Below are positions 4,868 through 53,322 of a stretch of 64,000 nt of DNA, piece by piece. The stretch is taken from positions 20,451-84,450 of the IMG/VR virus record IMGVR_UViG_3300048818_000054. One strand, written 5' to 3'. Position numbers and translations under genes: made by a program. The stretch's first letter is position 1. Every line of letters starts with the position of its first letter. The stretch comes from a virus. A model generated the notes under the pieces. The model made no database searches. It was not told the DNA's origin and saw only the letters and a list, made by a program, of their open reading frames with translations.

Positions 4868-4881
4868 TGCAACTAGTTGCA
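4868..4881. repeat. palindrome TGCAACTAGTTGCA, copy 1
   Basis: Between SSB stop and helicase RBS. Confidence 0.9.
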
Positions 4882-4886
4882 CTAAA

Positions 4887-5672
4887 TCAAAGGTTGCTCT
4901 TCATTCCAGCGGTCGCTTTTTCGTGACCGATGCCTTTGACTGCCTTGCCGATGCCGAGCGTAATCAACTCGGCGGCCGGGCGGAACTTGATCTCTTCCTC
5001 GTAATTTGCTGGCGTAACGTCCTCGTCTTTGAGGCTGTATTTCGCGCAGAAATCGTCCCAATCGGTCCACTTGTATGTGGGCACGAACAGGCTGCCGACG
5101 CGCGGCGACTTCTTGCCGATACGCGACACGTCGAACGTCTGGCCGGCGAGACCGACAACTGGCTTCGAGAGCTTCGTCAACGCGGCGATGGTATCGCGCT
5201 TTCCGACGAACAGAGCCTTGCGATTGGTCAAGAGCTTGCCTTCATTCGGGCCGCTCTGAATTTCGTAAGGGGTGTGGTTGATGATCGTGGCGACCGCGAC
5301 GAAAGCCGGTTCGTCGCCGCCTTCGCACATGGGGCAAGGCTGCGTCGTGTCCAGTTCGGCGGTGCAGACGAAATTGTCGGGCTTGCCGTTAATCATGATC
5401 GTGTGCTCATGAAAACGTGGAAGGTCAAGAACTCCTTCATCGTCGAGAGCGCCATCAAGGAACGTGATCGAAGCCTCTTGGCCTTCCTTCAAATAGAAGC
5501 GGCGAAGGGAATTCATTTCCTCTTGACGAAGGGCGGCCTTAGCTTCGTTCTGCGCGATGGCAGTCTTAGCGGCGGCTCCTGTCTTCATCCATGAGAGGGT
5601 GCCGGCTTGCTTCGGTGCGGCGGCTTGGACTTCGGAAACAGCGGCGGGGTTTTTCTTGAACGTAAGTGCCAT
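4887..5672 (-). CDS. single-stranded DNA-binding protein (gp32-like, Zn-binding)
   Basis: HEH...FVC...CPMC motif; replication context; start trimmed to MALTFKK. Confidence 0.7.
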   Translation of the reverse strand: MALTFKKNPAAVSEVQAAAPKQAGTLSWMKTGAAAKTAIAQNEAKAALRQEEMNSLRRFYLKEGQEASITFLDGALDDEGVLDLPRFHEHTIMINGKPDNFVCTAELDTTQPCPMCEGGDEPAFVAVATIINHTPYEIQSGPNEGKLLTNRKALFVGKRDTIAALTKLSKPVVGLAGQTFDVSRIGKKSPRVGSLFVPTYKWTDWDDFCAKYSLKDEDVTPANYEEEIKFRPAAELITLGIGKAVKGIGHEKATAGMKSNL

Positions 5673-5721
5673 GATGAATGTACCTTCACAAAAGGCGGGT
5701 CTGACTCTCTGGTCGGCCGCC

Positions 5722-5749
5722 AAAATAGGCCATGCTAGGTAATTGTCAA
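5722..5749 (-). promoter_or_regulatory. sigma70-like promoter for SSB
   Basis: TTGACA-16-TATTTT. Confidence 0.55.
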
Positions 5750-10162: not shown

Positions 10163-11072
10163 TGTTCGGGTCTAAAATCTGTGCCATCGTCAGCTTAGAC
10201 GGTTTCTTGAGATTTGCAACTAGTTGCACGGGGGGTGACGGCGCAGCTTCGATGACCGGCGTTGAGGCCGGGCCGGCATTCTCGCCATTCACGAATTTGA
10301 TGGCGTAATGGCGATATGTCGCGAGGAAGGCCACGGTCGGTTGCTGGGGGTAGGTTTTGAGCCCGGCCTGCTCTTTGACGAACTTTCCGAAGCTGATCCA
10401 TAAATCCATGACGTGTTTCAATGTGGTGGTCGCGGTGCCGACCGGGCAAGCGTCAAAGAACAATCGAAGCTGGGCGCTCTGCTTGGCGGTCATGCTCATG
10501 ATCGGAACATCGAACCAGTGCTTGATTTTTTCCAGCCACGTCAATTCGAGTAGCTTCGAAGGCTTCATCGGATTGTGCATTTTAGCCACAAGGGCAAGCA
10601 CGTCTTTGGTTGAATGTCCCACTTCAATCTCTCCGAGAGAATTCTCTGTTTCTGGTCCAGCCTCCGTTTGCGTGAGCAAGATTTCTTCTTGAATATCTTC
10701 TTGAATATCTTCTTGCTCTATGATTGGTCCCTTTAGGGCTATAGCGTTAGACCCTATAGGGCCTGCCTCATGTCCCTTTAGGGCCTCACGTGTACGCGAC
10801 GGAAGCGAATAATGGCCGATAGTTTTGTGGTTGAAAACGGCCATTTTCCAGTCGATATGGTTCTGCTCTCGTAGCAGCGAAACGGCCCGTTTGATCTGCT
10901 TCATCGAACACGCTGTCTCTTCCATCAAGTCGGTATGGGACTGCGGAGTGGTTGTCTTCCCGTATTTCAACGCGCCTTCGTAAAGGAATTGCAGACGCAA
11001 GAGGACGATCGCGGCTACAGGATCGCCGGTCAGGCGGTGTGCGCGGGCTAGGTAGTTGTCCACTCTTGGCAT
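10140..11072 (-). CDS. replication initiator protein (N-terminal wHTH; contains iterons)
   Basis: QSHTDLMEETACSMKQIKRAVSLL HTH-like segment; upstream of loader and DnaB; internal repeats as in lambda O-type genes. Confidence 0.7.
   Translation of the reverse strand: MPRVDNYLARAHRLTGDPVAAIVLLRLQFLYEGALKYGKTTTPQSHTDLMEETACSMKQIKRAVSLLREQNHIDWKMAVFNHKTIGHYSLPSRTREALKGHEAGPIGSNAIALKGPIIEQEDIQEDIQEEILLTQTEAGPETENSLGEIEVGHSTKDVLALVAKMHNPMKPSKLLELTWLEKIKHWFDVPIMSMTAKQSAQLRLFFDACPVGTATTTLKHVMDLWISFGKFVKEQAGLKTYPQQPTVAFLATYRHYAIKFVNGENAGPASTPVIEAAPSPPVQLVANLKKPSKLTMAQILDPNSDLDDDD
10215..10228. repeat. palindrome TGCAACTAGTTGCA, copy 2
   Basis: In the 3' end of the initiator, upstream of the loader. 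Confidence 0.85.
10729..10784. repeat. three iteron-like repeats CCCT(T/A)TAGGGC (putative replication origin)
   Basis: Copies at 10729, 10752 and 10774 (22-23 bp period) inside the initiator gene. Confidence 0.65.
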
Positions 11073-13344: not shown

Positions 13345-13374
13345 ACGGCGCACGATAGACGAACGCCTGCCGAT

Positions 13375-13388
13375 TGCAACTAGTTGCA
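13375..13388. repeat. palindrome TGCAACTAGTTGCA, copy 3
   Basis: Upstream of the AAA ATPase. Confidence 0.9.
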
Positions 13389-14039: not shown

Positions 14040-14480
14040 TCATTCCTTCGGCTTTGTCAGCTTGTGGATTAAGGCGGTAGCCGAGGCGGTCTTCTTCGGC
14101 CTGTCGTCTATAATCTTCCCCGTGGCGAAGGCGTCAATCAAAATCCCGCAGCACGCGCGTACTGAGGCCAAGTTCAATACCAGCGACCGGCTGTCAACGT
14201 CGATATCGTCGCCGCAAAACCATTGCATCAAATGGCGCATTGCTGCGTCATAATAGATGCTTGCGCGTATCGGCGTATCCAGCCAGTTATATGCTCCGTA
14301 CTTGGCGGCTCCGTCCGCCATAACGCGCCCTTCTTCAAGCAAGGCGACCGGGGGGATGTAACTGATCCCCGGTTTGAGCCGGCCGATTTTGTCTTTCGGG
14401 TTGCTTAGGTCGTGATCGGGCGGTAGCGCAGCGTCACCGGATGAATGAGCCACAGAGGCTTTTTTAACTCGCGAAACCAT
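14040..14480 (-). CDS. dATP/dGTP diphosphohydrolase-domain protein (DUF5664-like)
   Basis: NPKD...GAAKYGAYNW...YYDAAMRHL..W..G.DID.DS...LA...AC..IL. Confidence 0.8.
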   Translation of the reverse strand: MVSRVKKASVAHSSGDAALPPDHDLSNPKDKIGRLKPGISYIPPVALLEEGRVMADGAAKYGAYNWLDTPIRASIYYDAAMRHLMQWFCGDDIDVDSRSLVLNLASVRACCGILIDAFATGKIIDDRPKKTASATALIHKLTKPKE

Positions 14481-19176: not shown

Positions 19177-19190
19177 TGCAACTAGTTGCA
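19177..19190. repeat. palindrome TGCAACTAGTTGCA, copy 4
   Basis: Upstream of the endolysin. Confidence 0.9.
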
Positions 19191-36037: not shown

Positions 36038-36051
36038 TGCAACTAGTTGCA
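36038..36051. repeat. palindrome TGCAACTAGTTGCA, copy 5
   Basis: Upstream of the tail chaperone. Confidence 0.9.
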
Positions 36052-36271: not shown

Positions 36272-36299
36272 GACGTTGGCGGGGCCGAAGCCCCGCTCC

Positions 36300-37922: not shown

Positions 37923-37961
37923 GGTTCAATTCCCTTGTTTTGGTTTCACCGATGACCGGCC

Positions 37962-39794: not shown

Positions 39795-39842
39795 GATGGT
39801 ATTCCTCTGGTACGTGCCGGGGATGCCGACTTGTGGTTCTGC

Positions 39843-39856
39843 TGCAACTAGTTGCA
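39843..39856. repeat. palindrome TGCAACTAGTTGCA, copy 6
   Basis: Upstream of the 37962..39794 gene. Confidence 0.9.
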
Positions 39857-39900
39857 CAAACTATTTAAGGCCACAATGGCCCGGTCTCATTCATGGCCCA

Positions 39901-40395
39901 TCAAAACGGCGGTGTAGCCGTCGCGCGCGGGTCGGCGTAGTTGTATCGGTATTGGATTTGCGCGATGCAAACGCCCATGGCGGCTCGGTCCGCATAGGTT
40001 ATGAGGTCCACTTCAGACCCGATGATCTTGGTATCTATGGCCCTTCCGCCCCATGTGCGGTCGGTAGTCATAGCGCGCTTCACGACGGTCAAAAGCTGTT
40101 CGATCAAGACGCCGGGGTCCGGATCGCCACGGTTTACGGTCGCCCGAAACTCGATATTCACTTCCATGAAGCACATGACGTATGGCATTTGGAACTTCTC
40201 AGCCTCCTTCCCGGCGACGATACCGAGTGAGTACTGCTTCTTCTGATCGTTCTTGGTCAAAGGGCCAATCTCAACCGTCGAAAAATTGAAGCCGAACGGG
40301 TCACCGATCGGCAACGCGTCGGTCACAAGGGTCCGAAAATAGGTCTCGATTGCCTGAATGATGGACAAGCGGACGCTGGTTACATTGGCGGTCAT
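39901..40395 (-). CDS. tail terminator/completion protein
   Basis: Position; VRLSIIQAI...DRTWGG.AID pattern. Confidence 0.65.
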   Translation of the reverse strand: MTANVTSVRLSIIQAIETYFRTLVTDALPIGDPFGFNFSTVEIGPLTKNDQKKQYSLGIVAGKEAEKFQMPYVMCFMEVNIEFRATVNRGDPDPGVLIEQLLTVVKRAMTTDRTWGGRAIDTKIIGSEVDLITYADRAAMGVCIAQIQYRYNYADPRATATPPF

Positions 40396-41045
40396 GACGA
40401 AGCTCCTGCGGTCATCGCCTGAACGATGGCGTCGGCGGCGCGCGATTGAAAGTAGCCCAAGCCTGCGTCAATCGTGGTTCGCAAGCCGAGGCGAGGCGGA
40501 ATGGTCACTGAGGTCTTTAGCACGTAAAGGGGGACGATGCTGGTCCCCCGGCGCTGGAAAATTATGAGGTTCCCGGCCTTTGACTTGGCAACGAAGGTGT
40601 TCGGCCACGCGCGCGGCCCCATCATGAGCGGCACCCCTTGAGCGTCCAGCGCGGGCGGCAATGGGATGGCGAGGAATTGCGCGTTCTTAGCGTGGATCGT
40701 GCCACCGTATTCTTGAATGGCGGCGTAGGGCACGTCCGATCCTATCGAACCCATGATGGCGTCGAAGGTCTCACCGGTAACATTGACGGAGGCGGCAATG
40801 GACGCGATCAAGGCCCCGGTACGCTTGCTCAGGGACGTTTCTGTCGTGCCGCCCGGCCACGCGCCGCCGTGGCGCTGCGCGAGCGCGGTCGATACTTGGT
40901 TGAGAAATTCTCGAAGCTCTTGAGAAAGCACGCGGGCAGAGCCGTCCCAATCTGACTTCAGAGCTTTGCCAAAAGCGGTCAAGCCGGCCGATATTGAGTC
41001 GAACCGCTGATCTCGGAAGTTGACTTCGATATCGAAGGTAGCCAC
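40392..41045 (-). CDS. neck/tail-completion protein (HK97 gp10-like)
   Basis: RTGAL..SI, YAAIQEYGG.I, IPPR. Confidence 0.75.
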   Translation of the reverse strand: MATFDIEVNFRDQRFDSISAGLTAFGKALKSDWDGSARVLSQELREFLNQVSTALAQRHGGAWPGGTTETSLSKRTGALIASIAASVNVTGETFDAIMGSIGSDVPYAAIQEYGGTIHAKNAQFLAIPLPPALDAQGVPLMMGPRAWPNTFVAKSKAGNLIIFQRRGTSIVPLYVLKTSVTIPPRLGLRTTIDAGLGYFQSRAADAIVQAMTAGASS

Positions 41046-41052
41046 GGCAGCC

Positions 41053-41679
41053 TCAGAGCGGCAGTAGGGCTAGGGGAGCGTAGCGAAGGTGTTTGGATAG
41101 CAGGGAATTGAGTTGTGGCTGTAGCACCTTCGGCTCTAGCTTGATTTGCGCTTCCGAAAGCGACGCATCGTCCACCAAACCGAGCAAAGTCTTGATCTTG
41201 CACGCCTGTTGAAGCCAATCCGGAACCTCGGCCAACGAATAGCTCCCAACGATCGGGGGCGATGATGCGTCGGGATCAAAGCCGGCGACGTAAACGATCT
41301 GAACGTACTGGCGGGAATAGCGATTGGCTACGTCCTTCACCAAGCCCTTGCCCGAGTGCAGAATGACGGTAGGCGTGTAATCGAGCAGCACGCTTCCATC
41401 GGTGAAGTTCGCATATTCGTAAGCCACCTTGACCGACGTAATGCTCGCGATAAGCCCGCGCGTAAGGCGGAACTCGGTAGCAAAAGCCTGACCCTCAATC
41501 ACGGTCGGCTCGTCCACATAGAACGTGTCCGTGAACGTGCCCCGGTCAAAGTCGGTATTGAGCAACCCGGCAAGCTGCGGCTCCGCAGCGTCCATCGCCA
41601 TGGTGACGGCAAACGTAATGTCCGTCATCGCGTCAAAACCTAGGCGCTCGACAACTTCCGTGACCGAGGCAAGCAACAT
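41053..41679 (-). CDS. head-tail connector/adaptor
   Basis: LASV.EV..RLG, V.YVAGF, VPDWLQQAC. Confidence 0.75.
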   Translation of the reverse strand: MLLASVTEVVERLGFDAMTDITFAVTMAMDAAEPQLAGLLNTDFDRGTFTDTFYVDEPTVIEGQAFATEFRLTRGLIASITSVKVAYEYANFTDGSVLLDYTPTVILHSGKGLVKDVANRYSRQYVQIVYVAGFDPDASSPPIVGSYSLAEVPDWLQQACKIKTLLGLVDDASLSEAQIKLEPKVLQPQLNSLLSKHLRYAPLALLPL

Positions 41680-41689
41680 GGCGTGGTCC

Positions 41690-42187
41690 TCACTTCATCT
41701 GAACGGCGACTTCGGGCTTTCCAGAGGCTTTGAAGACGCGCGGCTTGGTATTGTCCGTGGTGACCGTCCCGTCCGCCGCGTCCAAGCGACCTTCGGTGGC
41801 CGGGCGCATGGGCGAGCGATTGGGCTCGTCCGGAGGATTGAGGACTTGCATGGCGCGGTCGCGCTCGGCAACAGAAATCGGATATTTCAGCAATTCCGAC
41901 AGGGCGTAATGGCTCGGCTTGCCTGAACGATCGAACTTCGTATCGTCGGGGGTTTCGAGCATACCCATCTTTTCGATGATATCTTCGATCAAAGCCTCGC
42001 CCTTGGGGCGATTGGCGAGGGCGTCGGCTTCGTATTCCTCTCGGCCGAATATGCCCTTGACGCGGAAGCGAGGATCGCTGTCAAGCAGCTTAGCCTCGTC
42101 GGAATTTACGTCCACTTCCTCGTCTTTGATGTAAATCCGGCCCCGGATGTTCAGACGGCGCGGACCAATGAGTTTTGCGGTAGGCAT
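41690..42187 (-). CDS. hypothetical protein downstream of the major capsid gene
   Basis: ORF with plausible start MPTAKLIG. Confidence 0.6.
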   Translation of the reverse strand: MPTAKLIGPRRLNIRGRIYIKDEEVDVNSDEAKLLDSDPRFRVKGIFGREEYEADALANRPKGEALIEDIIEKMGMLETPDDTKFDRSGKPSHYALSELLKYPISVAERDRAMQVLNPPDEPNRSPMRPATEGRLDAADGTVTTDNTKPRVFKASGKPEVAVQMK

Positions 42188-42245
42188 GACATTCTCCATT
42201 CGGGGCAGCTTTCGCCAGCCCATCTTCGGCCCGGTATTGGGCGAC

Positions 42246-42274
42246 AAAAGGGCGCAGCCGTTAAGCTACGCCCT
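42246..42274 (-). terminator. Rho-independent terminator after the major capsid gene
   Basis: AGGGCGTAGC-TTAACG-GCTGCGCCCT followed by TTTG. Confidence 0.75.
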
Positions 42275-42300
42275 CATGTTCGGTCAAGCCGCGGTACAGA

Positions 42301-43302
42301 TCAAACCGTGGCGATGTTCTCGTACTGCACGATGGCGTCGCTCTCTTCGATATTGAAGGCGATACGCGCCGTCAACACGATGATGTAAACGCGCTCCGTG
42401 ATATCCTTGTCGAATTCCATGGACACCTGACGCTGAATGCCGAAAATCAGGTTCAGCGGGTCGGTGAACAGGCCCTCGGACTCAGGCATAAGAGCGACCG
42501 GGACCACGGGCGAACCGTAGGCGAAGGTCGGGCTCGTGCCCTGCGTCATCTGGTCGCCCAGCGCCGTTGCGCGGTCGGACAGCGTGTCGCGGTATTCCGT
42601 CTCGTTATTGACCGAGACGAAATGGTTCAGCGCGGGCTTGTTGCGCTGATACTGCGACGGCATGGTCTTCAAGCCCTGCTTGAAGATGGCCTTGCTGATC
42701 GACTGGCTGTTGGCGTTGAACACGTTGCCGGACGTGCTGGCGATATTGAGCCAGCCGGCGAACTGGCTGAGATAAGCCTGATCGTCTGTATCGGCGGCGT
42801 TCGTGTAGGCGGTATACGCAAGCAGGCCAAGCTCTTCCATGTCCAGCGCGGCGCGCTCGGCAATCAAGTCAATGATCGTCTGGCGCAGCCCGGCCGGGCC
42901 GGTGTTGGGCAATTCGTTCGTCGCCGTCGTGGCGCGCTCGATATTGTCCTCCATCACGTCGTACGGGATGTTGACCTGAGCGATCTGCTCCTTGGTCGTC
43001 AACTCGATCTGCGACGTGGTGGGCTTGGCGCGGCCGTCGAGAGCCGTGCTGTTGGAACCGTTCGCCGTAAGAGCAACGGCCGACGTGGCGGCGCGCAAGA
43101 TGCGCGAGCCGAAGCCGATCTTGTTGATCTTGCGGATGGGAGCAACCATTTCGACCACGCGGCAGAGCCGAATGAGCGTGGGCTGCTTGATAAGTTTGCG
43201 GATGAAGGCCGCGCCCTGTTCGGGGCTCAGTTCACCGCCGTTGCTGGCGAGGTCCGCGATGGCGAGATCGGCCTTGCGGAGCAGGCTGCTGTTGCTGGAC
43301 AT
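42301..43302 (-). CDS. major capsid protein (HK97 fold)
   Basis: LLRKADL...GGELSPEQ...FI, DVMEDNIE, NLIFGIQR...EFDKDI. Confidence 0.9.
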   Translation of the reverse strand: MSSNSSLLRKADLAIADLASNGGELSPEQGAAFIRKLIKQPTLIRLCRVVEMVAPIRKINKIGFGSRILRAATSAVALTANGSNSTALDGRAKPTTSQIELTTKEQIAQVNIPYDVMEDNIERATTATNELPNTGPAGLRQTIIDLIAERAALDMEELGLLAYTAYTNAADTDDQAYLSQFAGWLNIASTSGNVFNANSQSISKAIFKQGLKTMPSQYQRNKPALNHFVSVNNETEYRDTLSDRATALGDQMTQGTSPTFAYGSPVVPVALMPESEGLFTDPLNLIFGIQRQVSMEFDKDITERVYIIVLTARIAFNIEESDAIVQYENIATV

Positions 43303-43343
43303 TTTCGTTCACTCCAAGTTTCTGTTGCAGTTGCTATCCGCGA

Positions 43344-45293
43344 TCACGCGCGGCGGGAAAATCCCGTATCCATGAGGGGCGGAGCGTTGTCGGCGGTCTT
43401 GGCGAAAGCCACAACCACGTCATCGTTCGCCTCCCCGAACACGGTCCCGAGTAGGGCCGCGTCGTGTTTCTTCACCGAGCCGACCACTTCGTCCACCCGG
43501 CTTCCTAGGGCCGATACGTCCTTCTTCACGCCAGCCAGACCGTCTTTCACGTCCTTGCTGAGCGCGGCGACGGCCTGCATGATCGCGCCGTTCTCTGACT
43601 TGAGGGTCTGAACGTCGTTTTCCTGCGCGCCTGCGCCAGACAACCCGTCTGAGAGTTGCTGTTCTTTGTTCTTTCCCTTCTTGCCGGCGTCATCGTCGCC
43701 CGCGTTCTTGGTCGTCGGGGAAAGCATCTTCGCGGGAATGCCAGCGGTATCGAGCGTGGCTCCCTTGACTTTGCCGGTGACTTTGCCGCCAGCGTTCTTG
43801 GCGTCGTCAGCCGTGGCGCGCGCCTGAGCCGCGAGGCTATCTTCGTCCGTGCTGGTCCCGGCACCCGCGCCATCGGCACCTTCGCCGGTGACAAGAATGC
43901 TCGTAACATCAACGGTATGCGCGTCCTTGACGACTACCGTGTTCTTGACGGCCGCGAGGTCGAGTTCGGCTTTGGTAAGCGCGGCCTTGGCCTCTTCAAC
44001 CTTCTGGGTGGAAGCCATCAACTTGGGATTGAGGCCCGTGGTCGCGCCGATCGTGCGAGCGTCGCCATCGTCGGCGTTCTCATTGCGGTTCGTCGCGGCG
44101 CGCGCGGCGTCATTGGCGTCTTTCCAGACCTTCACGTCGGCGGCGCTCTTGGCGAGGATCGCCTTGACCGCATCATAAATGCCCTGCGCGAGGTCGGTCT
44201 TGCCGACCGCAACCAAGTCGGCAGCGGTCTTGCACATGGCGGTCGCCTCTACTTCGGCTTTCTGCGTGGAGGCCATAAGCTCGGCGGGCATCCCGGTATC
44301 GGTGCCCGAGGTCTTGCCCCCTAACTTGCCGCCCGGAATGGCGTTGATGGCGGTGTTCGACGCATCGTCGGCGGTCGCCGCAGCGTTCGTCTCCGTGCCA
44401 GCGCCGAGTTCCGCGCCAGCGCCCGTGCCGTTCAGGCCGGCGTCGGCCTTCGCAACTTGGGTATTGCCGGGGGTCTTCTCCGGGATAAGCGGGTCTTTGC
44501 CGGCAACGGCCGTAGCCATGTCGCCGCCGCCGAGGTCGCCTTCACCCTTCGCGATCTTGCCCTTCTCAAACTTACCGGGGCCGGTCTCCTGATCGCCGCC
44601 AGCCCCGCCTTCGGCGTTGCCGGTGCCGGTCTTCTTGAGTTCGGCCTTGCGAAGCGCTTGGTCGAACTTGAAGGCCGAGACGGGAACCGCCTTGGTCAGG
44701 GTCATGATGTAGGCTTTGAAGTCGTCAACGGCCTTCGAAATGCCGACTGCGGCGGCGGTCGGGTCGGCCGCGTCCTGAAGCACGTTGCTGACCACCGATC
44801 CGAGGGCCTGAGCCGCGCCGGACAGCGACATGACATACGAGCTTGTAGCGACGTTTTCGCCAAAGTCGGACGAATTGAAATCGTACTCGCAAAAGCCTTT
44901 CTTGAGGCCCGAAATCCCGAGCGCCACGTCCTTGCTGACCTTCAGCATCATCGTGTCTGCCGGGTTGACGCCGCTCTTCAGCGTATAGACCGTCATGCCC
45001 TTGATCTCGCCCTTCAGAAGGGGCTCGAAGTCAACGCCGGCCGCCTTCAGCATGGCGATGATGGCGTCCTCATTGGCGGCCTTCGTCATGTAGACGCCGA
45101 CCACGGCGGGAGCAACCACGGTGCCACCGTCGCCCTTGAGAACGGTCTTCTTGAGCAAGCTATAGAGGTCCATGTCTGCGTCCTCGCTTTTGGTCAATCG
45201 AAACGGTATGCGGTTCGCACCCCGTTTGACCAACGCAATGAAATTCACGTCCGTATCGGTCAGTTCTGTCGCGTTAATTTCGAACTTGGGCAT
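43344..45293 (-). CDS. scaffold/internal core protein
   Basis: Between protease and MCP; VNFIALVKRGANRIPFRLTK N-terminus; low-complexity repeats. Confidence 0.65.
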   Translation of the reverse strand: MPKFEINATELTDTDVNFIALVKRGANRIPFRLTKSEDADMDLYSLLKKTVLKGDGGTVVAPAVVGVYMTKAANEDAIIAMLKAAGVDFEPLLKGEIKGMTVYTLKSGVNPADTMMLKVSKDVALGISGLKKGFCEYDFNSSDFGENVATSSYVMSLSGAAQALGSVVSNVLQDAADPTAAAVGISKAVDDFKAYIMTLTKAVPVSAFKFDQALRKAELKKTGTGNAEGGAGGDQETGPGKFEKGKIAKGEGDLGGGDMATAVAGKDPLIPEKTPGNTQVAKADAGLNGTGAGAELGAGTETNAAATADDASNTAINAIPGGKLGGKTSGTDTGMPAELMASTQKAEVEATAMCKTAADLVAVGKTDLAQGIYDAVKAILAKSAADVKVWKDANDAARAATNRNENADDGDARTIGATTGLNPKLMASTQKVEEAKAALTKAELDLAAVKNTVVVKDAHTVDVTSILVTGEGADGAGAGTSTDEDSLAAQARATADDAKNAGGKVTGKVKGATLDTAGIPAKMLSPTTKNAGDDDAGKKGKNKEQQLSDGLSGAGAQENDVQTLKSENGAIMQAVAALSKDVKDGLAGVKKDVSALGSRVDEVVGSVKKHDAALLGTVFGEANDDVVVAFAKTADNAPPLMDTGFSRRA

Positions 45294-46008
45294 CCAAAAT
45301 TCCCTCGACAAACGAGAACCGGTGACAATGCGGCGGGTTGCCCGCCATTTCCGTTACCGTCCCGCGCTCGATCTTGTGAATGTGGCCGTCGCGAGCGTTG
45401 CCCGTCTTGCCACCAAGAAAGAACCCGGTCGGGTCATACTTGACGAAAAACTGGTGCCGGTGCCCTTGCACTTCGTCAGTCTCGCCTTTGAGCAAATCCG
45501 GCATTTCGATCGAAAACACGGTGTCTGTTCGGACACCCATGCCATCAAGCGAAAAACCGTTCAACTCGCCCGACTTGACCATTTTCCAAATGGCGGCGTC
45601 GGGAACGTGCGCTCCAATCACCCAGCTATCGGCTAGGAAAATCGGGTCGCCTTCGCGAGCGATGAAGCTTTCGACGATGCACGAACCGGACGGCACCTGA
45701 GAATGGTTCACGTCCACATTCTTCAAAAGGCCCTTGGACATGAAGTTGTACGCCATCTTCTTGACTTGCACGGCGGACATGAAGTCCCCTTGCGAGTCCG
45801 GAAAACCCGGCGCGTAAACCTCGCCAAAGACGGTCTGCTCTTCGTCATCTAGCTTCTTGATAAGGATTTGATTGATTTCCGGCACTGTTTTGAGGACGCG
45901 GCTTGCCATGAACGATAGATCGTCCGTCGCCAGCTTCATCAACCTAACTCGGTCGGCCACCACTTTATCCTCACCACTGGTCACCCAGCGAATGATGAAG
46001 ATTGGCAC
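45274..46008 (-). CDS. XkdF-like prohead serine protease
   Basis: VFGEVYAP..PDSQGD, DVNH, IVESFI, GELNGFS. Confidence 0.85.
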   Translation of the reverse strand: MPIFIIRWVTSGEDKVVADRVRLMKLATDDLSFMASRVLKTVPEINQILIKKLDDEEQTVFGEVYAPGFPDSQGDFMSAVQVKKMAYNFMSKGLLKNVDVNHSQVPSGSCIVESFIAREGDPIFLADSWVIGAHVPDAAIWKMVKSGELNGFSLDGMGVRTDTVFSIEMPDLLKGETDEVQGHRHQFFVKYDPTGFFLGGKTGNARDGHIHKIERGTVTEMAGNPPHCHRFSFVEGILDAQVRN

Positions 46009-46034
46009 GCGCGAGAGTTTGGATCAATCCTCTG

Positions 46035-46048
46035 TGCAACTAGTTGCA
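46035..46048. repeat. palindrome TGCAACTAGTTGCA, copy 7
   Basis: Upstream of the prohead protease. Confidence 0.9.
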
Positions 46049-46049
46049 C

Positions 46050-46071
46050 AAAATGGCCCAAGTGATGGGCC
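46050..46071 (-). terminator. possible terminator after the MuF gene
   Basis: GGCCCA-TCACT-TGGGCC followed by ATTTT. Confidence 0.45.
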
Positions 46072-46077
46072 GCCAAA

Positions 46078-48054
46078 TCAAATTCGATCTATGGGTGCTC
46101 CGTCGTCATTCACGTTCTGAATGTCCGATATCGGGTTGCTTGAGTCAGGCTTTATGTCGTCATAGTCCTGCGAAAGCTGGCCTGCCGCGCTCTGCCTCTT
46201 GCCCTTCTTCTTGGGAGCATTCGGGGAACGGTCATCGTCGGACGGGTCTTCTTTCTCAACATTCTTGTCCTTGAAGTCATCAACGATCTTCTGAGCCTTG
46301 TCATAATCGCCAGCGGTGAAAGCGTCGTCAGCCTCCTTGAACATGGACGGGTCGGTTATCTCGAAGCGTGCCCACATGAGCGTGTCAATCTCGCTTTCGC
46401 TCCAATCTTTCGCTGTTTCAGCATCCGTTGAAATGGCGTCATCTGGTGAAGTCTCCGCGATGGCGAGCGCTGCATCGTAATCGCCGTCGTCATAGGCGGA
46501 CTGCGCGCTGTCCTTCAAATCCCCGTCGTCAAGGTCTTCAATCGCGCCTTGCAGAGCTTCGGTCTTCGCGTCATCGTCCCACCCGGCTAGGTCTTCGGCG
46601 TCAACTTCATCGCCTTCGACACCCAATGCAGCAACTCCATCCAGCAAATCACTAACAAGGTCTTCTCCCTCTTCGGAAAGCTCACCGGGCTCTTTCGTGC
46701 TGGCCGGAACCAACATGCCACGGCAGTTCGGGTGATAGGGCGGCGAGCCGTAGCCGGCCGCCTGTAGTTCATCTGGCGTCATGCCGGCGAGGTCTTCGAG
46801 GTCAGGCCATGGTGCCATGGACGCCAACTCGTCGGGGTCGGACGTGCCCAACGTTTGCATGAGCCGGCCGCTCTGCTCGGCAACGTCGAACTGCATCCCG
46901 TCCATGTACTGGCAAACGTCGCACGTCTTGTCGTCAAGAATTTCGCTGACCTCATAGGTGGTTGAGCCTTCGTCCGACGCCTGAGACAGGAAGCCCAGCG
47001 ATATGAGACGCGAGGTAGTGAGACCGGCCTGCGTGTCGATTGGCACGGTCCCGCCGCTGGCTACAGCCGCATTAAGCTGGTCTGCAAGCGTCTCAAGTGC
47101 CGCCTCGGCCTTAATCAAGTCCTCTTCACGCACCTGATAAGTGCCGTTGTAATTGCGGACCATGCGGACAGGTAGCAATCGATATAGGGTCGCAATGTCG
47201 CGGTTGCGGAGCGCCTGTAAGGCGTACTCTTTGTCTGACTGGTCACGGATGCGATCGATGGCGTCGTGCCACGCGAGCACTTCGGCCGAGGTCATGCCTT
47301 CGTTGTCTTCGTCCTCGGCCTTCAGCACGTCCTCTTCAAGGTCATCCTGCCAGTCTGTATTGATCTCTTGGAAAATCTCAGGGCCGAATTCGAGCGGGCC
47401 GTCATAAGCCTTGATGGCGGACAGGTCCAAGTCTTCAGGCGCAGCATAGGTGATGGTGACGTGGGACTGGTAAGGTACGAAGCTATGATGGCAGCCCAGC
47501 ACGCGCAGATACGAATGCCGCCTAATCAGGTCCGCGTTTTGGAACGTCATCACGACCGCATCCCCGAACTGCTCAATGGTTCGGTTTTCCGTGTCATAGG
47601 CGAACAGGTGACCTGAGCCGCCCTCGCCCATGTTCTCCCAATCCACCGGGTCTTTCGAATAGACGACGGTGACGTGCATGTCATCGGCGGGGAGCGTGCT
47701 CGTAAATCCAGCCTCTTTCGCCCAAGCAAGCAGAGGTTCTGTGTTCACAAGGTCTCGACGGATGTAAAGCGTCTTGTCAAATTTCTTGAGCTTGCGCTTC
47801 CGCTTGTAGGGGGCCTGCTTCTGCTCGGGCTCGGCAAGGCCGCCCGTCACCGCTAGCGACACCGAGCTTATGTCATCTTTTTTGAGTTCTTTTTTTTTAG
47901 CTTTGGGCATGTCGGGAAGGCGCGCGAGCGCGGCCGATGAAGTGTCTTCGGTTTTGTCGAGCAGACGACGGTATTCAACGGCCGCAGCCGTCTGAACCGG
48001 GTCATCCTTCAGTTTTGACAAAATCGCCGCGATTTCCACGTTTCCATACCTCAC
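46078..48054 (-). CDS. fusion: Acb1-like 2H phosphoesterase + MuF/gp7-like head morphogenesis domain
   Basis: TLYIRR...MHVTVVYS...SHVTITY...FGPEIF (two HxT motifs); LDDKTCDVC...PPYHPNCRG (MuF). Confidence 0.85.
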   Translation of the reverse strand: MRYGNVEIAAILSKLKDDPVQTAAAVEYRRLLDKTEDTSSAALARLPDMPKAKKKELKKDDISSVSLAVTGGLAEPEQKQAPYKRKRKLKKFDKTLYIRRDLVNTEPLLAWAKEAGFTSTLPADDMHVTVVYSKDPVDWENMGEGGSGHLFAYDTENRTIEQFGDAVVMTFQNADLIRRHSYLRVLGCHHSFVPYQSHVTITYAAPEDLDLSAIKAYDGPLEFGPEIFQEINTDWQDDLEEDVLKAEDEDNEGMTSAEVLAWHDAIDRIRDQSDKEYALQALRNRDIATLYRLLPVRMVRNYNGTYQVREEDLIKAEAALETLADQLNAAVASGGTVPIDTQAGLTTSRLISLGFLSQASDEGSTTYEVSEILDDKTCDVCQYMDGMQFDVAEQSGRLMQTLGTSDPDELASMAPWPDLEDLAGMTPDELQAAGYGSPPYHPNCRGMLVPASTKEPGELSEEGEDLVSDLLDGVAALGVEGDEVDAEDLAGWDDDAKTEALQGAIEDLDDGDLKDSAQSAYDDGDYDAALAIAETSPDDAISTDAETAKDWSESEIDTLMWARFEITDPSMFKEADDAFTAGDYDKAQKIVDDFKDKNVEKEDPSDDDRSPNAPKKKGKRQSAAGQLSQDYDDIKPDSSNPISDIQNVNDDGAPIDRI

Positions 48055-49180
48055 TCGAAGCCGTCATCCCGGACTTCGCCAGACCGTCAAACGCCGCACG
48101 GGGCTTGTCCCCATAGGCAGCAACCACATTGGGCGGGATGTAGCGCCCGGTCGCGAAATAGCGCTCTATGACCGAAGTTGCCGACGTTGCGTGTGACACG
48201 TCAATCAATTTCACATGGACGGTGTAGCCCTGACTAACCAATTTCTGGGTGTCCTGCAACACCTTCTCCGGGCTGTCAATTCTGGGCCATACGATGTTAT
48301 CGCCGTTCGCCGTAGCGCGCGCAAGCACGTCGTCAGTGATCGCGCCGGCCTCTTCATGAACTGCCCGCGCGCCGAGGCCGCCAGAGAATTCCGGAAGCTT
48401 CTCCTTGGCAAGATCGTTGTCTATTTCGAGCGTGCCGGCCAAACGCAACGGTTCTGAGAACGTGCTCTTCCCAGCCCCCGGCAAGCCTAGGATGATGGTG
48501 GCCTCATGGCCTTGCACCCTGATCCCAATATCCTTGTTATAGAGGTCATCGGCTATGCTCTTCCGCAAACCTACGCGATCTTCGGTCGCCAGCAAGTAAG
48601 TCTCCGGAATGGCGTCGGCCAAGGTTTGCGCTCGCGTCAGACCAGCAACGATCTCTTCGTTGGTCATTTTGTCGGTGAAGGGGGTATAACTCTTCGCTTT
48701 CGGCGCAGCCGTCGCGCTCGCGCTGGCAAAGCGCCCACGTTCGTCATGGTTGCCGTTGAACTTCTGAAGCCGGGTGTGCCGCTCCGATTGGGCCGTGATG
48801 AAGTCGTGCAACTTCCGTGCCAGATAATCCCGTCCCTTGACCTCAACCGCATGGACAAGCTGGTCGATCGCGTTGTGAAGCTCTTGCGGAAGGGCCTTAC
48901 CTTTGGCGTATACCGTCGTCAGCAAGTCGCCGGTTTGATGGTGGGCTCCGAATAGCAACGCCGCCGTGGCAAGCTCTTCGATCTTAGGGCGCACGTTCGA
49001 CACAATGCCGACCAGCGACATACGCGCAACAATGCCTTGCGCCTCTGCGAATTTGCCTGCGCGTAGGAGAGGGTGAAGGTCTCCGACGATGCTGCGCGCC
49101 ACCTTGTCCCATTGCGCGCGCATCGCGGCGGCCATGGTCCGCTCGATAGCGAGGTAAGCTTGGGGCGCGGCGGTGCTCAC
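48002..49180 (-). CDS. fusion: MuF N-terminal-like helical region + zeta-toxin-like P-loop kinase
   Basis: GLPGAGKST, IDND.AK, VHEEA, GY.V.V..I.V...S..RYF.TGR.IP. Confidence 0.75.
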   Translation of the reverse strand: MSTAAPQAYLAIERTMAAAMRAQWDKVARSIVGDLHPLLRAGKFAEAQGIVARMSLVGIVSNVRPKIEELATAALLFGAHHQTGDLLTTVYAKGKALPQELHNAIDQLVHAVEVKGRDYLARKLHDFITAQSERHTRLQKFNGNHDERGRFASASATAAPKAKSYTPFTDKMTNEEIVAGLTRAQTLADAIPETYLLATEDRVGLRKSIADDLYNKDIGIRVQGHEATIILGLPGAGKSTFSEPLRLAGTLEIDNDLAKEKLPEFSGGLGARAVHEEAGAITDDVLARATANGDNIVWPRIDSPEKVLQDTQKLVSQGYTVHVKLIDVSHATSATSVIERYFATGRYIPPNVVAAYGDKPRAAFDGLAKSGMTASSEVWKRGNRGDFVKTEG

Positions 49181-50022
49181 GCCTTGGCTCGCAGCCGGTC
49201 CCGCGCATAGCGGATCGAAGCGGAGTCATTCGCTTGGTCAAGGTATTTGAGTTCGGCCCGACCGCCCGGATTGGCGCTCGCGGCGGCGTGCGCGTCGCGC
49301 CCTATGTACGTGAGTTCGGCGTCTGTCTTGTCATGGTAGGGGTGGTCATAGAGCAATCCAGACTGCTTGACCTTCGACTCCACCGTTTGCGTCTCCGATG
49401 AAAAACGGCCGTCCGGACCATGATTGTCATTGGACTTGCTAACCCCGGAGTTGGCTTGGCCGTAATTGAACTTGTCCTTCGGGGCGAAGGTGAAATTCTC
49501 GTCGTCTTCTAGGGACTGGCGCAGTTGCTCGGCCGCCAAATCCGCGTCTGATGCGGTTGTCCCATTGCCTACCGCGAAGCGCCCGCGTTCGTCGCGCGGC
49601 TGATCTTCGCTGCCTTTTTCCAGCTTGCCCTTGGCGTTGAAGCCGTCTGTCGCCTTCGAGCGGGTGTTGGCGTCCTTCGCCATATCGACGGCAGCGTTAT
49701 AGGACGCCTTGGCGGGCTCCGTCGCGCCGTTGCGGGCATGGTCACCGGCTCGGCTGAACGTGTCGGCGGCGACGCGCGCCGCGATCGACGCTGAGTGGTG
49801 AAGCGCGGCCACGTCGCTTGTCGGGTCATTGGCATAAATGGCGTTGCCTTGATTGGCGTGCCAGACGGCCATTTGCCCGTAGCGCTCGGCAGCCGCGTCG
49901 GCGCGGTCAGCCGTGGTATGCAACGGCTCTTCGTCCGTGCTCGGCATCGTGTACATGCCCTTGCCGGCCGCGAACGGGTTTGCGGCCTTGAACATGGGGA
50001 CCAAGCGGTTGAAGTAAGCCAT
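49177..50022 (-). CDS. putative virion internal protein with RDERGRF / NHGPDGRF motifs
   Basis: GAGG RBS before MAYFNRL. Confidence 0.65.
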   Translation of the reverse strand: MAYFNRLVPMFKAANPFAAGKGMYTMPSTDEEPLHTTADRADAAAERYGQMAVWHANQGNAIYANDPTSDVAALHHSASIAARVAADTFSRAGDHARNGATEPAKASYNAAVDMAKDANTRSKATDGFNAKGKLEKGSEDQPRDERGRFAVGNGTTASDADLAAEQLRQSLEDDENFTFAPKDKFNYGQANSGVSKSNDNHGPDGRFSSETQTVESKVKQSGLLYDHPYHDKTDAELTYIGRDAHAAASANPGGRAELKYLDQANDSASIRYARDRLRAKA

Positions 50023-50032
50023 GGCCGTTTCC

Positions 50033-50431
50033 TCAGAGCGCCTTCGTATTCTTGTCGGCGGTGTTCGCCCAGCCCCGCGCGGACTTGACGTATTCGCCAG
50101 CGGTCTTCGTGTCGCCGGCCAGCGTGGCCTTCGAGGCTTCTCCGAAGTAGCTCGCGGCCTGCTTGTGAGCGCCGGCAAGCACGGCGTGATCCTGCGCCGG
50201 ACCCTGCATCCCGCCCTTGGTCATGGCACCGTTGATCTGGTCGTGGAGGTCGGCCTGCGCGGCGTGGGCCTTCCCGCAATTGGCCTGCATGGCGGCTCCG
50301 CCGCAATCGGCGCTTCCGTCATCGCCTGACTGGAAAGTCGAGGTTGCGGCGGCGGCCTTCGCCAGCCCAACCTTTTCATCCTCAAGCTCGGCGTCGGTCT
50401 TTATGACCGGGTGTTTCGTGAAAAAAGCCAT
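50033..50431 (-). CDS. putative virion internal protein (Ala-rich helical)
   Basis: GAGG RBS before MAFFTKH. Confidence 0.6.
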   Translation of the reverse strand: MAFFTKHPVIKTDAELEDEKVGLAKAAAATSTFQSGDDGSADCGGAAMQANCGKAHAAQADLHDQINGAMTKGGMQGPAQDHAVLAGAHKQAASYFGEASKATLAGDTKTAGEYVKSARGWANTADKNTKAL

Positions 50432-50441
50432 GGTCCTGTCC

Positions 50442-51182
50442 TCACTGGTTCGTGTTGTCTTCATTGGCGGAATTCCCGCCCGAATTGTTGTACCCGGCCT
50501 GAGCCTCTGCAACGGCAGACGCGGCCTGCTCCTTCTGCGGATAAGAGCCGGTCACTTTCCCGGTCGGAAGGTGATGCGCGGCGAAGCCACCGGCCGGCAT
50601 GGCGACAACGTGGCCCACGGTCTTGCCGGTCTTCTTGTCCTGCATTTCGTTGACGTGTGGGTTGTCCTTGGGGTCTTTCATGGTCATTTGCGAGCGCATG
50701 TCCGCGCCCGACACCTGAGCGCCACTGTTATTCTGGCCGCCCGCGCCAGAGGTCGTGTCCTGAGAACTGGCCGCTGCCGTCTCGCCGCCATTGTTCATGG
50801 GCTCACCCTTTTTCACGCTCCAGTACTTCTCAGGGTCGGAGCCGGCCGCCACAAACTTTTCATGAATGCTGGCTAGCTTGCTCTGGGCGTCTTCTTTGCT
50901 TGGGAGTTGGGTAGCCATGGAGCCAGTTTTGTCGTGAGAGGCCATCCACTTACCAGACGGCAGCTTAGACACGTCGCCTACGCGCTTGCCGTCGCCGTCA
51001 TAGGAGCGGTGCGTCTCAACCGGGTTAGGATTGGCATCTGTCACCTTCGCGGTAACATCCTTCGACGTGAGCCCGCCACCGCTGCCCGAGCTAAAATTCC
51101 CGTCCGGGCCATGGTTTTCGTTGCCCTTCACCAAAGTTTCTTCGGCGGTCTTAACGAGGGCGATGCGATGAAGGAACGTCAT
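50442..51182 (-). CDS. putative virion internal protein with NHGPDGNF motif
   Basis: GAGG RBS before MTFLHRI. Confidence 0.6.
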   Translation of the reverse strand: MTFLHRIALVKTAEETLVKGNENHGPDGNFSSGSGGGLTSKDVTAKVTDANPNPVETHRSYDGDGKRVGDVSKLPSGKWMASHDKTGSMATQLPSKEDAQSKLASIHEKFVAAGSDPEKYWSVKKGEPMNNGGETAAASSQDTTSGAGGQNNSGAQVSGADMRSQMTMKDPKDNPHVNEMQDKKTGKTVGHVVAMPAGGFAAHHLPTGKVTGSYPQKEQAASAVAEAQAGYNNSGGNSANEDNTNQ

Positions 51183-51192
51183 GGCGGTATCC

Positions 51193-53268
51193 TCAATGCG
51201 TGTGATGGCCCAGCACGTCGAACGTGCAGGCGGTAAGCTCAGCAAGGCCGTCCGGGTCAAGGGACGGATCGACAAACATCAACTCGGTAGCCATCGCCAT
51301 GATACGGGCTTGTGACTCGCCGTCCATGCGCTGGAAATAGCCCATGGACTTGTTCAGTTGGACAAAATCACGTTTCCGAAGCGACTTCAATAGATCGTGG
51401 GCAAGCTCTAGGCCGGTAGCGGGCATTCCGTCGTCAGCCTTCTTGGCGTTTGACGCGGCGCTGGCATTGTTCCCGGCCGGCGTCTTGACCTTCGGTACCG
51501 GGATGGGGCCGGGCGACTTGCCGTTCTTACCGGGCGCGCCGGGCAGACGGCCCGCGCCGAGAGCCGGCGACACGGGTTGCGGGTTGATGGGTTTGATGGG
51601 CTGCTTGCCGGCCGCGCCGGCAGGACCGGCCGCTGCGCCCATGGGGCCTGCCGCTGCACCGCCAGCGCCCGCGACGGCAACGGCCGCCTTGACGCCACCC
51701 GGAATTTCCTTGATCTGCCCCGTGTCCGGATCGACGGCATGAGTGGTGCCGGGGGGAATGGGTTGCGGAGCGGGCGGCTGTATCTGGTCGGACAGCGTTT
51801 GCGCGTCCGGCGACACCTTCATCTTGATCCCGACGATCTCGTTGATGACCTCGATAATATCGGCCGGCTCGACTTGCTGCATGGTCGAAATGATCTCAAC
51901 GCCCTGAAGCTTGAGGGTCGCGTCTTCGATGACCAGAGGCTTCGATCGCAAGCAAAAGTCGTTAAACTTCATCGCCTTGAGCAACTTCATGGTGATGATC
52001 GTGTCGAAGTCATCGCGCTCCGGTTTGAACACCTGAGCCTCGGCAACCACGTACGAAGCGAAGGCGGTCGCGAAATTGTAGCTCTCGGCCTGCCCCATGA
52101 AGATGGGCGGCATACGGAAGGCGCGCAGCACGCGCTCAGTGCAGCGCTTGTCATAGTCCTCAAACATGCTGTCCTTGGTCCTGTCGCCACCGAAGCGCTC
52201 GACGGTGACGGTCGCCTTGGGCGGCCCGCCATCGGTTGAGCCGCCCGTGGGCTCGACCTCTAGGACTTGGACATGGTTGTTCTTGGCGGCCGATCCGGCA
52301 TTCATGCGCTGGATCGCCGCGCGGGTCTCGGCCTGAAGTGAGCCGCCCTGAAGGATAATCATGACCGGTGGAACGCCGCCGCGATTGAAGAATTCTAGGT
52401 TGAACTCTTCGGCCTTGCGCGAGCCGAGCACCGAGGGAAGCTGCGCTATCCAGCGCGGGATACCGTAGGGCGTATGGGAGTCCAAGATCACAATGAAGTG
52501 CATAATCTCCGTCGCGCGCATGTTCGCGGGAAGCTGTTGCCCCATGGGAGCCCAAACGGCGGTCTTCTTGTGTAGGTCACGGACCGAGCCGAAGTCCTTG
52601 AAATACATGAGCGACACGCCGTTCACAAGCTGGCAATACCGACGCTCGCGGGTCATAACATTCAGTGTCGTTTCCTTGCCTCCCCGGAAAACCTTCTGAG
52701 GAATAGACACGGCGTCATCAAGGCGCAGCATACGCATCATCTTGGCGTCAACGCGGCGAAACATGACAATTTCGTTCGACGCGTTTCGCAACACTTCAAT
52801 GAACCCGTTGCCGGTACGCTCAAGATCGCGGCGGAGCAAAGCGCGTATCTGGCGGAATGAAACGCCCGGCCACGGTTCGTCAAAGAATTCGTTCAGGGCG
52901 TCAATCTGCGTATCGTCGGCGTCATCGTCCGTCGTGTCGTCATCCTTGCTCTCGAAGGTGTAGCCGGTGCCTTCGCAATTGGTCACCATGGCCTCAATGC
53001 AAGGCGATAGGGTATTGTTTTCCTGACTCAATCGGTCAAGCGTGCGGAGCGAGAACGGAGGCTGGATAATGCCTTGGTCACGGGTCGCGCCGACGTAAAG
53101 TTGCTGGTATTCGTCTTCCGGCTCGAAGGCATTCGGCTGAACCGCGCCATCGGGATTGTTGCCACCATTCGGCCCCAAATCCTTGAGGATTTGCGTCGAG
53201 CGGTCCGCAGAGACCAAGCGAAAGATTTGAGCGGACGGTTTCGCGTCCTTCTTGATCTCGTCAACCAT
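51193..53268 (-). CDS. portal protein (PBSX-like) with long Pro/Ala/Gly-rich C-terminal extension
   Basis: PPFSL..L, RDLE.TGNGF.EV.RN, YGIPRW, FF.RGGVP, RAFRMPP..MG...YN.ATA. Confidence 0.92.
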   Translation of the reverse strand: MVDEIKKDAKPSAQIFRLVSADRSTQILKDLGPNGGNNPDGAVQPNAFEPEDEYQQLYVGATRDQGIIQPPFSLRTLDRLSQENNTLSPCIEAMVTNCEGTGYTFESKDDDTTDDDADDTQIDALNEFFDEPWPGVSFRQIRALLRRDLERTGNGFIEVLRNASNEIVMFRRVDAKMMRMLRLDDAVSIPQKVFRGGKETTLNVMTRERRYCQLVNGVSLMYFKDFGSVRDLHKKTAVWAPMGQQLPANMRATEIMHFIVILDSHTPYGIPRWIAQLPSVLGSRKAEEFNLEFFNRGGVPPVMIILQGGSLQAETRAAIQRMNAGSAAKNNHVQVLEVEPTGGSTDGGPPKATVTVERFGGDRTKDSMFEDYDKRCTERVLRAFRMPPIFMGQAESYNFATAFASYVVAEAQVFKPERDDFDTIITMKLLKAMKFNDFCLRSKPLVIEDATLKLQGVEIISTMQQVEPADIIEVINEIVGIKMKVSPDAQTLSDQIQPPAPQPIPPGTTHAVDPDTGQIKEIPGGVKAAVAVAGAGGAAAGPMGAAAGPAGAAGKQPIKPINPQPVSPALGAGRLPGAPGKNGKSPGPIPVPKVKTPAGNNASAASNAKKADDGMPATGLELAHDLLKSLRKRDFVQLNKSMGYFQRMDGESQARIMAMATELMFVDPSLDPDGLAELTACTFDVLGHHTH

Positions 53269-53308
53269 GGCTTCCTCGTCTTCGAAAACCAAATCTCAGA
53301 CCAAAGAT

Positions 53309-53322
53309 TGCAACTAGTTGCA
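53309..53322. repeat. palindrome TGCAACTAGTTGCA, copy 8
   Basis: Between DNA polymerase stop and portal start. Confidence 0.9.

Follow-up and report, generated by a model that had tools for sequence, protein, structure and literature searches.

Dispersed copies of a 14-bp palindrome in a 99,945-bp phage genome belong to a clade-wide two-fold symmetric DNA word and may form an operator array

The DNA considered here, referred to below as the window, is a stretch of 64,000 nucleotides corresponding to bases 20451-84450 of the IMG/VR virus record IMGVR_UViG_3300048818_000054, a 99,945-bp genome rated complete in which almost all genes lie on the minus strand. The phage is present in peat and permafrost metagenomes. 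The element in question is the 14-bp palindrome TGCAACTAGTTGCA, of which a pattern search finds eight exact copies in the window, where 0.09 are expected and where none of 100 shuffles reached eight; variants with one or two mismatches are absent from the window. An earlier sequence-only reading had listed these same eight copies, called their number far beyond chance and suggested a count over the whole genome. The first two points are confirmed, and the count gives 14 exact copies, 13 of them at gene junctions. The hexamer ACTAGT never occurs outside the 14-mer anywhere in the genome. The sole near-variant, TGCAAATACTTGCA, is found at genome positions 88857-88870 (68407 in window numbering, outside the window), 6 nt past a stop codon and approximately 20 nt upstream of a TTGCAA-N17-TAGGAT promoter.

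In the window, all copies but one are situated 1-44 nt past a stop codon and shortly ahead of the next gene, and many of the intergenic copies adjoin a Shine-Dalgarno sequence. The copy at 4868..4881 separates the SSB-like gene g077 (stop codon 5 nt upstream) from the SNF2 helicase gene g078 (start 15 nt downstream), with a ribosome-binding site directly after it. That at 13375..13388 precedes the AAA ATPase gene g069 and contributes its right arm, TTGCAA, as −35 box to a sigma70-type promoter (N16, TATCGT at 13352-13357). The next, at 19177..19190, lies between the tail gene g060 and the endolysin-like gene g061, the ribosome-binding site being 7 nt downstream. Three copies come after terminator-like hairpins: 36038..36051, between g050 and the tail assembly chaperone gene g051; 39843..39856, before the virion protein gene g048; and 46035..46048, at the head of the operon for prohead protease, scaffold and capsid, where the adjoining hairpin (46055..46071, minus strand) consists of GGCCCA-loop-TGGGCC followed by ATTTTG. 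The copy at 53309..53322 is found between the gene for a family A DNA polymerase I (stop codon 5 nt upstream) and the portal gene. The remaining copy, at 10215..10228, lies within the 3′-end of the initiator-like gene g071, 75 nt ahead of the stop codon and before the helicase gene g072, and is read as VQLVA; its right arm is the −35 box for a TAAGCT at 10192-10197. The gene labels of the sequence-only reading were broadly right, and its placement of the copies at gene boundaries applies to all but this last one, for which it had itself recognized the in-gene position and the peptide. It had also described an asymmetric extended form, GATTGCAACTAGTTGCAC, in both orientations. Both occurrences are present (plus strand at 53306, minus strand at 36037), and the flank is in fact a partial symmetric TG...CA extension.

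Protein similarity groups this phage with Rhodobacter phage RcZahn, Rhizobium phages RHph_TM16 and Y1_11, and Agrobacterium phage JP1, further relatives being Stenotrophomonas phages DLP5, DLP3 and Summit and the 80-kb Vibrio siphoviruses such as VH2_2019 and SIO-2. The genes shared by the clade encode the large terminase subunit (TerL), portal, protease, capsid, polymerase, helicases and primase, as well as RecA-like, Cas4-like, RusA-like and RuvC-like proteins. A megablast of 25 kb against the phage collection gave no match. The same motif architecture is found in these relatives: DLP5 contains 31 copies of TGCAATCAATTGCA, JP1 33 of TGCAAACGTTTGCA, TM16 17 of TGCAACATATTGCA and VH2 ten of TGCAATTAATTGCA, and reversed-pattern controls gave no copies where an exact pattern was applied. 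The invariant core is TGCA-N6-TGCA, usually in the form TGCAA-N4-TTGCA, which is present 9-38 times per genome compared with an expectation of approximately 1.4; all other spacings of TGCA pairs are at background. With one arm mismatch allowed, every relative possesses 25-42 sites, many of them in genes, versus 16 in this phage, where the 14 copies are all exact, nearly all intergenic and strict in their CTAG center, and leave two 17-kb gaps. IMG/VR contig 3300009702_000028 (60.8 kb, 47% GC, 67% complete) carries the identical 14-mer at least eight times despite a protein identity of 44-48%. More distant IMG/VR relatives, defined by TerL, have sister motifs with altered arms, namely TGCACT..AGTGCA, TGACATTAATGTCA, TGAACT..AGTTCA and GCAAT..ATTGC.

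The 14-mer is this phage's dialect of a two-fold symmetric word of double-stranded DNA that recurs every few kilobases in the 80-100-kb genomes of the clade. Both the clade-wide spread and the real core, TGCA-N6-TGCA, go beyond what the sequence-only reading knew. The motif is not mentioned in the RcZahn and DLP3 papers, and a full-text literature search with six motif variants returned only unrelated Drosophila papers and no phage paper. Another viral contig of 60% GC (IMG/VR 3300016471_000965, positions 2630-4581, and 3300016472_000994) contains three copies of the 14-mer approximately 1 kb apart, each at the end of a longer repeated cassette (...ttacc...tttgcacc...); this looks like another kind of repeat.

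The arms of the word are under strong purifying selection, while the 4-bp center is free. All nine alignable sites of TM16 and Y1_11 are orthologous, and their arms are identical at 88 of 90 positions compared with 66-74% in the flanks; the central four bases drift. Of the copies in DLP5 and JP1, approximately two-thirds are in genes and are overwhelmingly read as xTG-CAA-NNN-NTT-GCA; in either of the remaining frames each copy would include a Cys codon. A conserved asymmetric flank element was found in none of the genomes, only a symmetric extension of 1-2 bp. The center is self-complementary in 95 of 290 sites (33%), against 6% by chance, and asymmetric centers occur in both orientations within the genomes of DLP5 and loci L188-L193 (5:4, 7:2 and 1:7, for example); those of TM16 and Y1_11 are biased, at about 11:1-2. 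The bare hairpin has a folding energy of −2.5 kcal/mol as RNA and −2.8 kcal/mol as DNA. The frame use, the conserved arms, the flanks, the centers, the orientations and the weak hairpin together point to a two-fold symmetric protein site on double-stranded DNA; they speak against a structured RNA, against a promoter made by the palindrome alone and against a repetitive extragenic palindromic (REP) element of the host. The operator for a dimeric protein that had been put forward at the outset is thereby supported by the symmetry, the free 4-bp center, the two orientations, the selection on the arms and the overlap with promoter boxes described below. The preference for such a site over a directional promoter is likewise borne out by the orientations and by the flanks, which hold no conserved −10 box in any genome.

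An RNA hairpin, which the sequence-only reading had offered as an alternative, is disfavored by the same observations. A hairpin of RNA or single-stranded DNA with a 5-bp stem and a 4-nt loop might serve as a processing, stabilizing, antitermination or priming signal, and with all genes on one strand every copy would be transcribed; the proximity of many copies to Shine-Dalgarno sequences, the orientation bias in TM16 and Y1_11, and a discrete RNA end near one copy would suit it. We nevertheless regard it as very unlikely. The stem is weak and its arms are invariant rather than covarying, the centers are self-complementary far above chance and occur in both orientations, no T-tract follows the motif, the RNA end lies at a distance of 55 nt, not at the motif itself, and most copies in the relatives lie in open reading frames, where cleavage would be harmful. 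Nor does the element resemble an intrinsic terminator or structured RNA, there being no stable G+C-rich stem, no T-tract and no covarying stem.

Least likely of all, in our judgment, is a site for a conserved host factor, whether a strong gyrase site, a REP or bacterial interspersed mosaic element at operon ends, or the box of a host regulator. The conservation of the arms across phages of alpha- and gammaproteobacterial hosts speaks for this, as do the 5-N4-5 geometry, which is that of a topoisomerase II site with a 4-bp stagger, the sites after terminators, where gyrase acts, and the binding of gyrase by REPs (PMC6379681). The published gyrase motif, in contrast, is 130 bp long, degenerate and read indirectly (PMC6379681), and was set aside as a match. 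No periodic or conserved flanks accompany the palindrome, and its arms vary among related phages. A scan of 185,579 bacterial species genomes returned at least 120 stretches, and among the matches listed the 14-mer is present once per 8-kb stretch, with no REP-like clusters; a host REP element, which the sequence-only reading had named as the contrary case, is therefore not matched. Dozens of Streptomyces and related actinobacterial genomes (L220-L297) have one TGCAACTAGTTGCA each among the matches listed, which is perhaps the conserved operator of an unrelated regulator.

A number of copies are placed in register with promoter elements. The phage possesses sigma70-type promoters of its own, TTGCAA-N16-TATGTT, of which ten are on the coding strand and two on the other, where shuffled sequence gives 1.9. 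The −35 box of such a promoter is part of the palindrome in three cases (window 13375, window 10215 and genome 17400). In three further palindromes a TAnnnT hexamer starts 7 nt upstream (0.08 expected), which puts the site over the start point; in all, three or four copies adjoin a −10-like box. Hexamers abutting in this way number 16 when pooled over 247 sites, versus 1.9 expected, and in contig 3300009702_000028 the 14-mer is twice located exactly 7 nt upstream of TTGACA/TTTACA. A sigma70-type promoter is not a feature of every copy, since TAnnnT at N16 past the right arm is found in only three of the 14. Two other promoter types were considered and rejected: a sigma54 promoter, by inspection, for the misfit of its GG/GC spacing, and a lambda CII-type TTGC-N6-TTGC, the required 5′ T of which is present in only five of the 14 copies. 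The coding strand also carries strong sigma70-type promoters of one family, TTGCAAgag-N9-gtgcTATGTT, at genome positions 96890, 82838 and 11450 (window 76440, 62388 and −9000); their −10 box is extended, and their −35 hexamer equals the right arm of the motif plus A.

The RNA evidence is drawn from contigs of four metatranscriptomes (X6, X7, X8 and X14) over window positions 35001-55000; as contigs from environmental samples rather than raw reads or 5′-end data, they show presence, shared ends and bridges, while their depths cannot rank genes. A discrete RNA 5′-end is found on the minus strand at 45979..45980, 55 nt downstream of copy 46035, where contigs of X6 (45979) and of X7 and X8 (45980) end; adapter read-through is listed for X7 and X8 at 45980, and X14 ends at 45944, also into adapter. 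Contig depth is low upstream of this copy and then rises approximately 10-20-fold downstream. A similar rise occurs at copy 39843, from about 0-6 upstream to 20-92 downstream. The X7 and X8 contigs share a second 5′-end at 43484, 182 nt upstream of the major capsid gene, where there is no motif (adapter read-through is listed for X8), and contigs of X7 and X14 have 3′-ends just past the capsid gene, at 42318 and 42309, respectively. The capsid mRNA is the most abundant part of positions 35001-55000.

Positions as well as sequences are conserved. Six of eight genomes, and contig 3300009702_000028 as well, have a site just upstream of the prohead protease gene, and five genomes have one upstream of the tail assembly chaperone, with the same junction used in RcZahn, TM16 and Y1_11 and the JP1 site 289 nt upstream. 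The initiator/helicase boundary is marked in both this phage and DLP5, whose copy is 72 nt ahead of the stop codon in the homologue of g071. About one-third of the DLP5 sites fall in the roughly 10% of its DNA that is intergenic. When relaxed site sets are used, spacing is more even than random, significantly so in six of eight genomes (P <0.0002 in DLP5, JP1, VH2, Y1_11 and SIO-2; 0.001 in RcZahn), weakly in this phage (P 0.02-0.04) and not significantly in TM16.

This evenness brings in the main rival to transcriptional control, a signal by which a core replication, recombination or packaging protein would cover the genome; examples are packaging-entry or self-recognition sites for terminase, sites for the RusA-like or RuvC-like resolvase, and anchors for DNA condensation. 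The maximum gaps of only 4-8 kb in the relatives, the copies within long genes such as that of the tape measure, the many sites unrelated to gene starts, and the presence of the element throughout the clade alongside its shared core genes all agree with such a role, and the circularly permuted ends of RcZahn (PMC8601537) would be compatible with numerous packaging starts. Compared with control of transcription, this reading accounts better for the evenly spaced and in-gene copies of the relatives and less well for the promoter overlaps and junction preference of this phage: 13 of the 14 copies here occupy gene junctions and half of these overlap promoter boxes, DLP5 too is enriched in intergenic sites, and an RNA 5′-end and depth steps accompany two copies. 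No core protein, moreover, is known to read a 14-bp palindrome. On balance we consider this role doubtful. The same doubt attaches to the bolder proposal that TGCA-N6-TGCA is a punctuation code marking the DNA every 3-7 kb and read by a core protein of no recognized DNA-binding family. It would be used in some genome-wide process other than classical operator control, such as the picking of phage DNA by terminase anywhere on a branched concatemer, which we would not rate higher, or, at a similarly low probability, the loading of a spreading protein that shields or compacts the genome.

One critical question is which protein reads the word. The search for a cognate helix-turn-helix (HTH) gene, which had been advised from the start, yielded two candidates, neither of which tracks the motif. 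The product of g023 (genome 86403-87272, two genes upstream of the TerL gene) is a genuine ParB/Noc/KorB-family protein with an N-domain and HTH. It matches Pfam ParB_N (3.3e-14), its profile matches Noc (1e-21), ParB, Spo0J and KorB of the PDB across both domains, and the top Foldseek matches of its AlphaFold2 model are ParB-CTPγS, Noc-DNA and KorB-KorA-DNA structures. The fold is kept, with the boxes corresponding to GERRxRA and ENLQR reading DGEHRWKG and MNNLRG in alignment A1. A homologue with 71% identity (P0021) is located on a 3.98-Mb Nitratireductor contig and others on contigs of 90-180 kb, which hints at integrated or episomal relatives in Alphaproteobacteria.

Such a protein might load at the palindromes and spread or slide from them to silence, segregate or organize the genome, in the manner of parS, O_B or Noc-binding sites (NBS). 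Members of this family bind dispersed palindromes of 13-16 bp, KorB acts over kilobases from its O_B sites (PMC11790492), and DLP5 persists as a phagemid (PMC5834331). Seven of eight genomes have a ParB-like gene upstream of TerL, and even spacing suits a spreading protein. Against this, no ParB-like gene is detectable in SIO-2, whose 26 sites are evenly spaced, and loci L211, L145 and L210 have sites and no ParB-like gene beside TerL. The proteins in the slot two genes upstream of TerL are of three HTH types, A in this phage, B in RcZahn, DLP5, TM16 and JP1, and C in contig 3300009702_000028, all of them found with TGCAA arms. Type B occurs also with TGCAC (L183) and TGACA (L209) arms, and the identical 14-mer of that contig is accompanied by type C, not type A. 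No ParA partner was noticed, and the GERRxR box reads GEHRW. The parS-like site mentioned in the sequence-only reading is thus weakened, to the point that we hold it to be improbable, the co-occurrence and covariation tests of g023 against the motif being negative.

The second candidate is the XRE-type HTH protein g017. Its gene is directly preceded by a motif copy, and it is the only local candidate in this genome with the classic autoregulatory layout. It was rejected as the protein of the whole clade, being absent from half of the motif-bearing genomes, and a locus search of IMG/VR found no relatives. Since it is patchy, the clade-wide protein must be another, or else non-homologous proteins share one site. 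The small core protein g080 was discarded as a RusA-like resolvase. Searches of Atlas and PHROG with g084 and with the 121-residue open reading frame after the helicase gene found only uncharacterized phage families, and the other conserved uncharacterized proteins gave no lead as binding-protein candidates.

The interpretation we favor, at about even odds with everything else taken together, is that the sites constitute an operator-like array for a putative phage-encoded symmetric DNA-binding protein, which would act on transcription genome-wide. The arms differ in distant relatives (TGCAC, TGACA, TGAAC, GCAAT), as they would if the protein were phage-encoded. A putative dimer, or dimer of dimers, would read TGCA-N6-TGCA and dock at the array along the unidirectionally transcribed genome, making of it a global operator. 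Where a site covers a −35 box or a transcription start, RNA polymerase would be occluded; at an operon junction, between a terminator and the next unit, the bound protein may set or gate the downstream block, especially the head and tail operons. We observe the sites, their symmetry, selection, spacing, conserved positions and promoter overlaps and the RNA step-ups at two copies; the binding, the identity of the protein, the effect on transcription and the sign of that effect are inferred.

Several observations weigh against an operator array. RNA contigs run through copy 53309, bridging the polymerase and portal genes; past copy 36038 depth declines instead of rising; the interval between site and promoter element varies; and the RNA evidence consists of assembled environmental contigs, not raw 5′-end data. 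The middle or late transcription element of the sequence-only reading is borne out in part: RNA rises at two late-operon copies, but promoter anatomy is not fixed and contigs span another copy. Approximately two-thirds of the relatives' sites lie in genes, far from gene starts and evenly spaced, a placement no less compatible with genome coverage than with promoter control. The cognate protein remains putative, and g017 is not shared throughout the clade: its homologues are found only in RcZahn, TM16 and Y1_11 and not in DLP5, JP1, VH2, SIO-2 or the 67%-complete 60.8-kb contig in which the 14-mer is identical.

Large siphovirus genomes repeatedly show dispersed, invariant palindromes that have had no explanation, and the same kind of array is common to phages of Rhodobacter, Rhizobium, Agrobacterium, Stenotrophomonas, Vibrio and uncultured peat hosts. 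The cultured members RcZahn, DLP5, DLP3, JP1 and SIO-2 make the question of the cognate protein directly testable, and its discovery would bring to light either a regulator of phage genes that is both new and global or a novel mechanism of genome marking. It would also provide a simple sequence signature by which to recognize and annotate the clade.

Two other genes of the window deserve mention. The 146-residue product of g066 (14040-14480, minus strand) matches PF18909 (2.4e-21), the N-terminal domain of dATP/dGTP diphosphohydrolase, a family linked to nucleotide-pool editing in phages with modified bases. A 658-residue protein (46078-48054, minus strand) contains an Acb1 domain (3.6e-32), directed against the cyclic-oligonucleotide-based anti-phage signaling system (CBASS), and has a weak match to the Mu F-like head protein.

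Among known systems, the late promoters activated by P2 Ogr and P4 Delta carry TGT-N12-ACA near −55. The extended form TGTGCAACTAGTTGCACA of this phage fits that pattern, and the copy before the protease gene is centered approximately at −61 from the RNA 5′-end. Most relatives, however, lack the TG/CA extension, and most sites are not upstream of promoters. An Ogr/Delta activator was rejected, as Ogr_Delta (PF04606) has no match in this genome, DLP5, TM16 or VH2 and only sub-threshold ones in RcZahn and JP1.

The closest mechanisms are the O_B operators of KorB in RK2 (PMC11790492) and the stoperators of Cluster A mycobacteriophages (PMC9283540). As with KorB, ParB/parS and Noc/NBS, short perfect palindromes are dispersed over a mobile genome, on promoters and far from them (PMC11790492), and this phage encodes a protein of that family. 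The element differs from KorB sites because protein and site are not linked by co-occurrence or covariation, and no KorA- or ParA-type partner was noticed here. Stoperators, the sites of L5 gp71-type repressors, are likewise short and present by the dozen in and between genes (14 here and 25-42 in each relative), so that one protein could damp transcription everywhere; the relatives DLP5 and DLP3 are temperate. Stoperators lack symmetry, follow the direction of transcription and bind a monomer (PMC9283540); the present element is set apart from them by being symmetric and unoriented, with its self-complementary centers and both orientations. No conserved repressor was found here, the XRE-type g017 being confined to part of the motif-bearing genomes.

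Among published phenomena, the nearest is the 17-bp dyad repeat that Cluster O mycobacteriophages carry, described in 2015 (PMC4351075). In Corndog this repeat, TGTTCGG-N3-CCGAACA, has 34 copies, and the passages of that report on the repeat name no cognate protein (PMC4351075). As those passages describe it, the repeat combines invariant inverted arms with a variable A/T-rich spacer, and more than 30 copies per genome lie in and between genes, without meaningful orientation and at similar positions among relatives. These general features of arms, spacer, copies and shared positions are all found here. The arms and geometry differ, being 7-N3-7 there and 5-N4-5 here, as does the range, a single narrow cluster with an actinobacterial host compared with an unrelated, broad, multi-host clade; and this phage has only 14 copies, nearly all intergenic. 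The present analysis contributes the TGCA-N6-TGCA core, the covariation tests with ParB and XRE proteins, the promoter registers and the metatranscriptome evidence.

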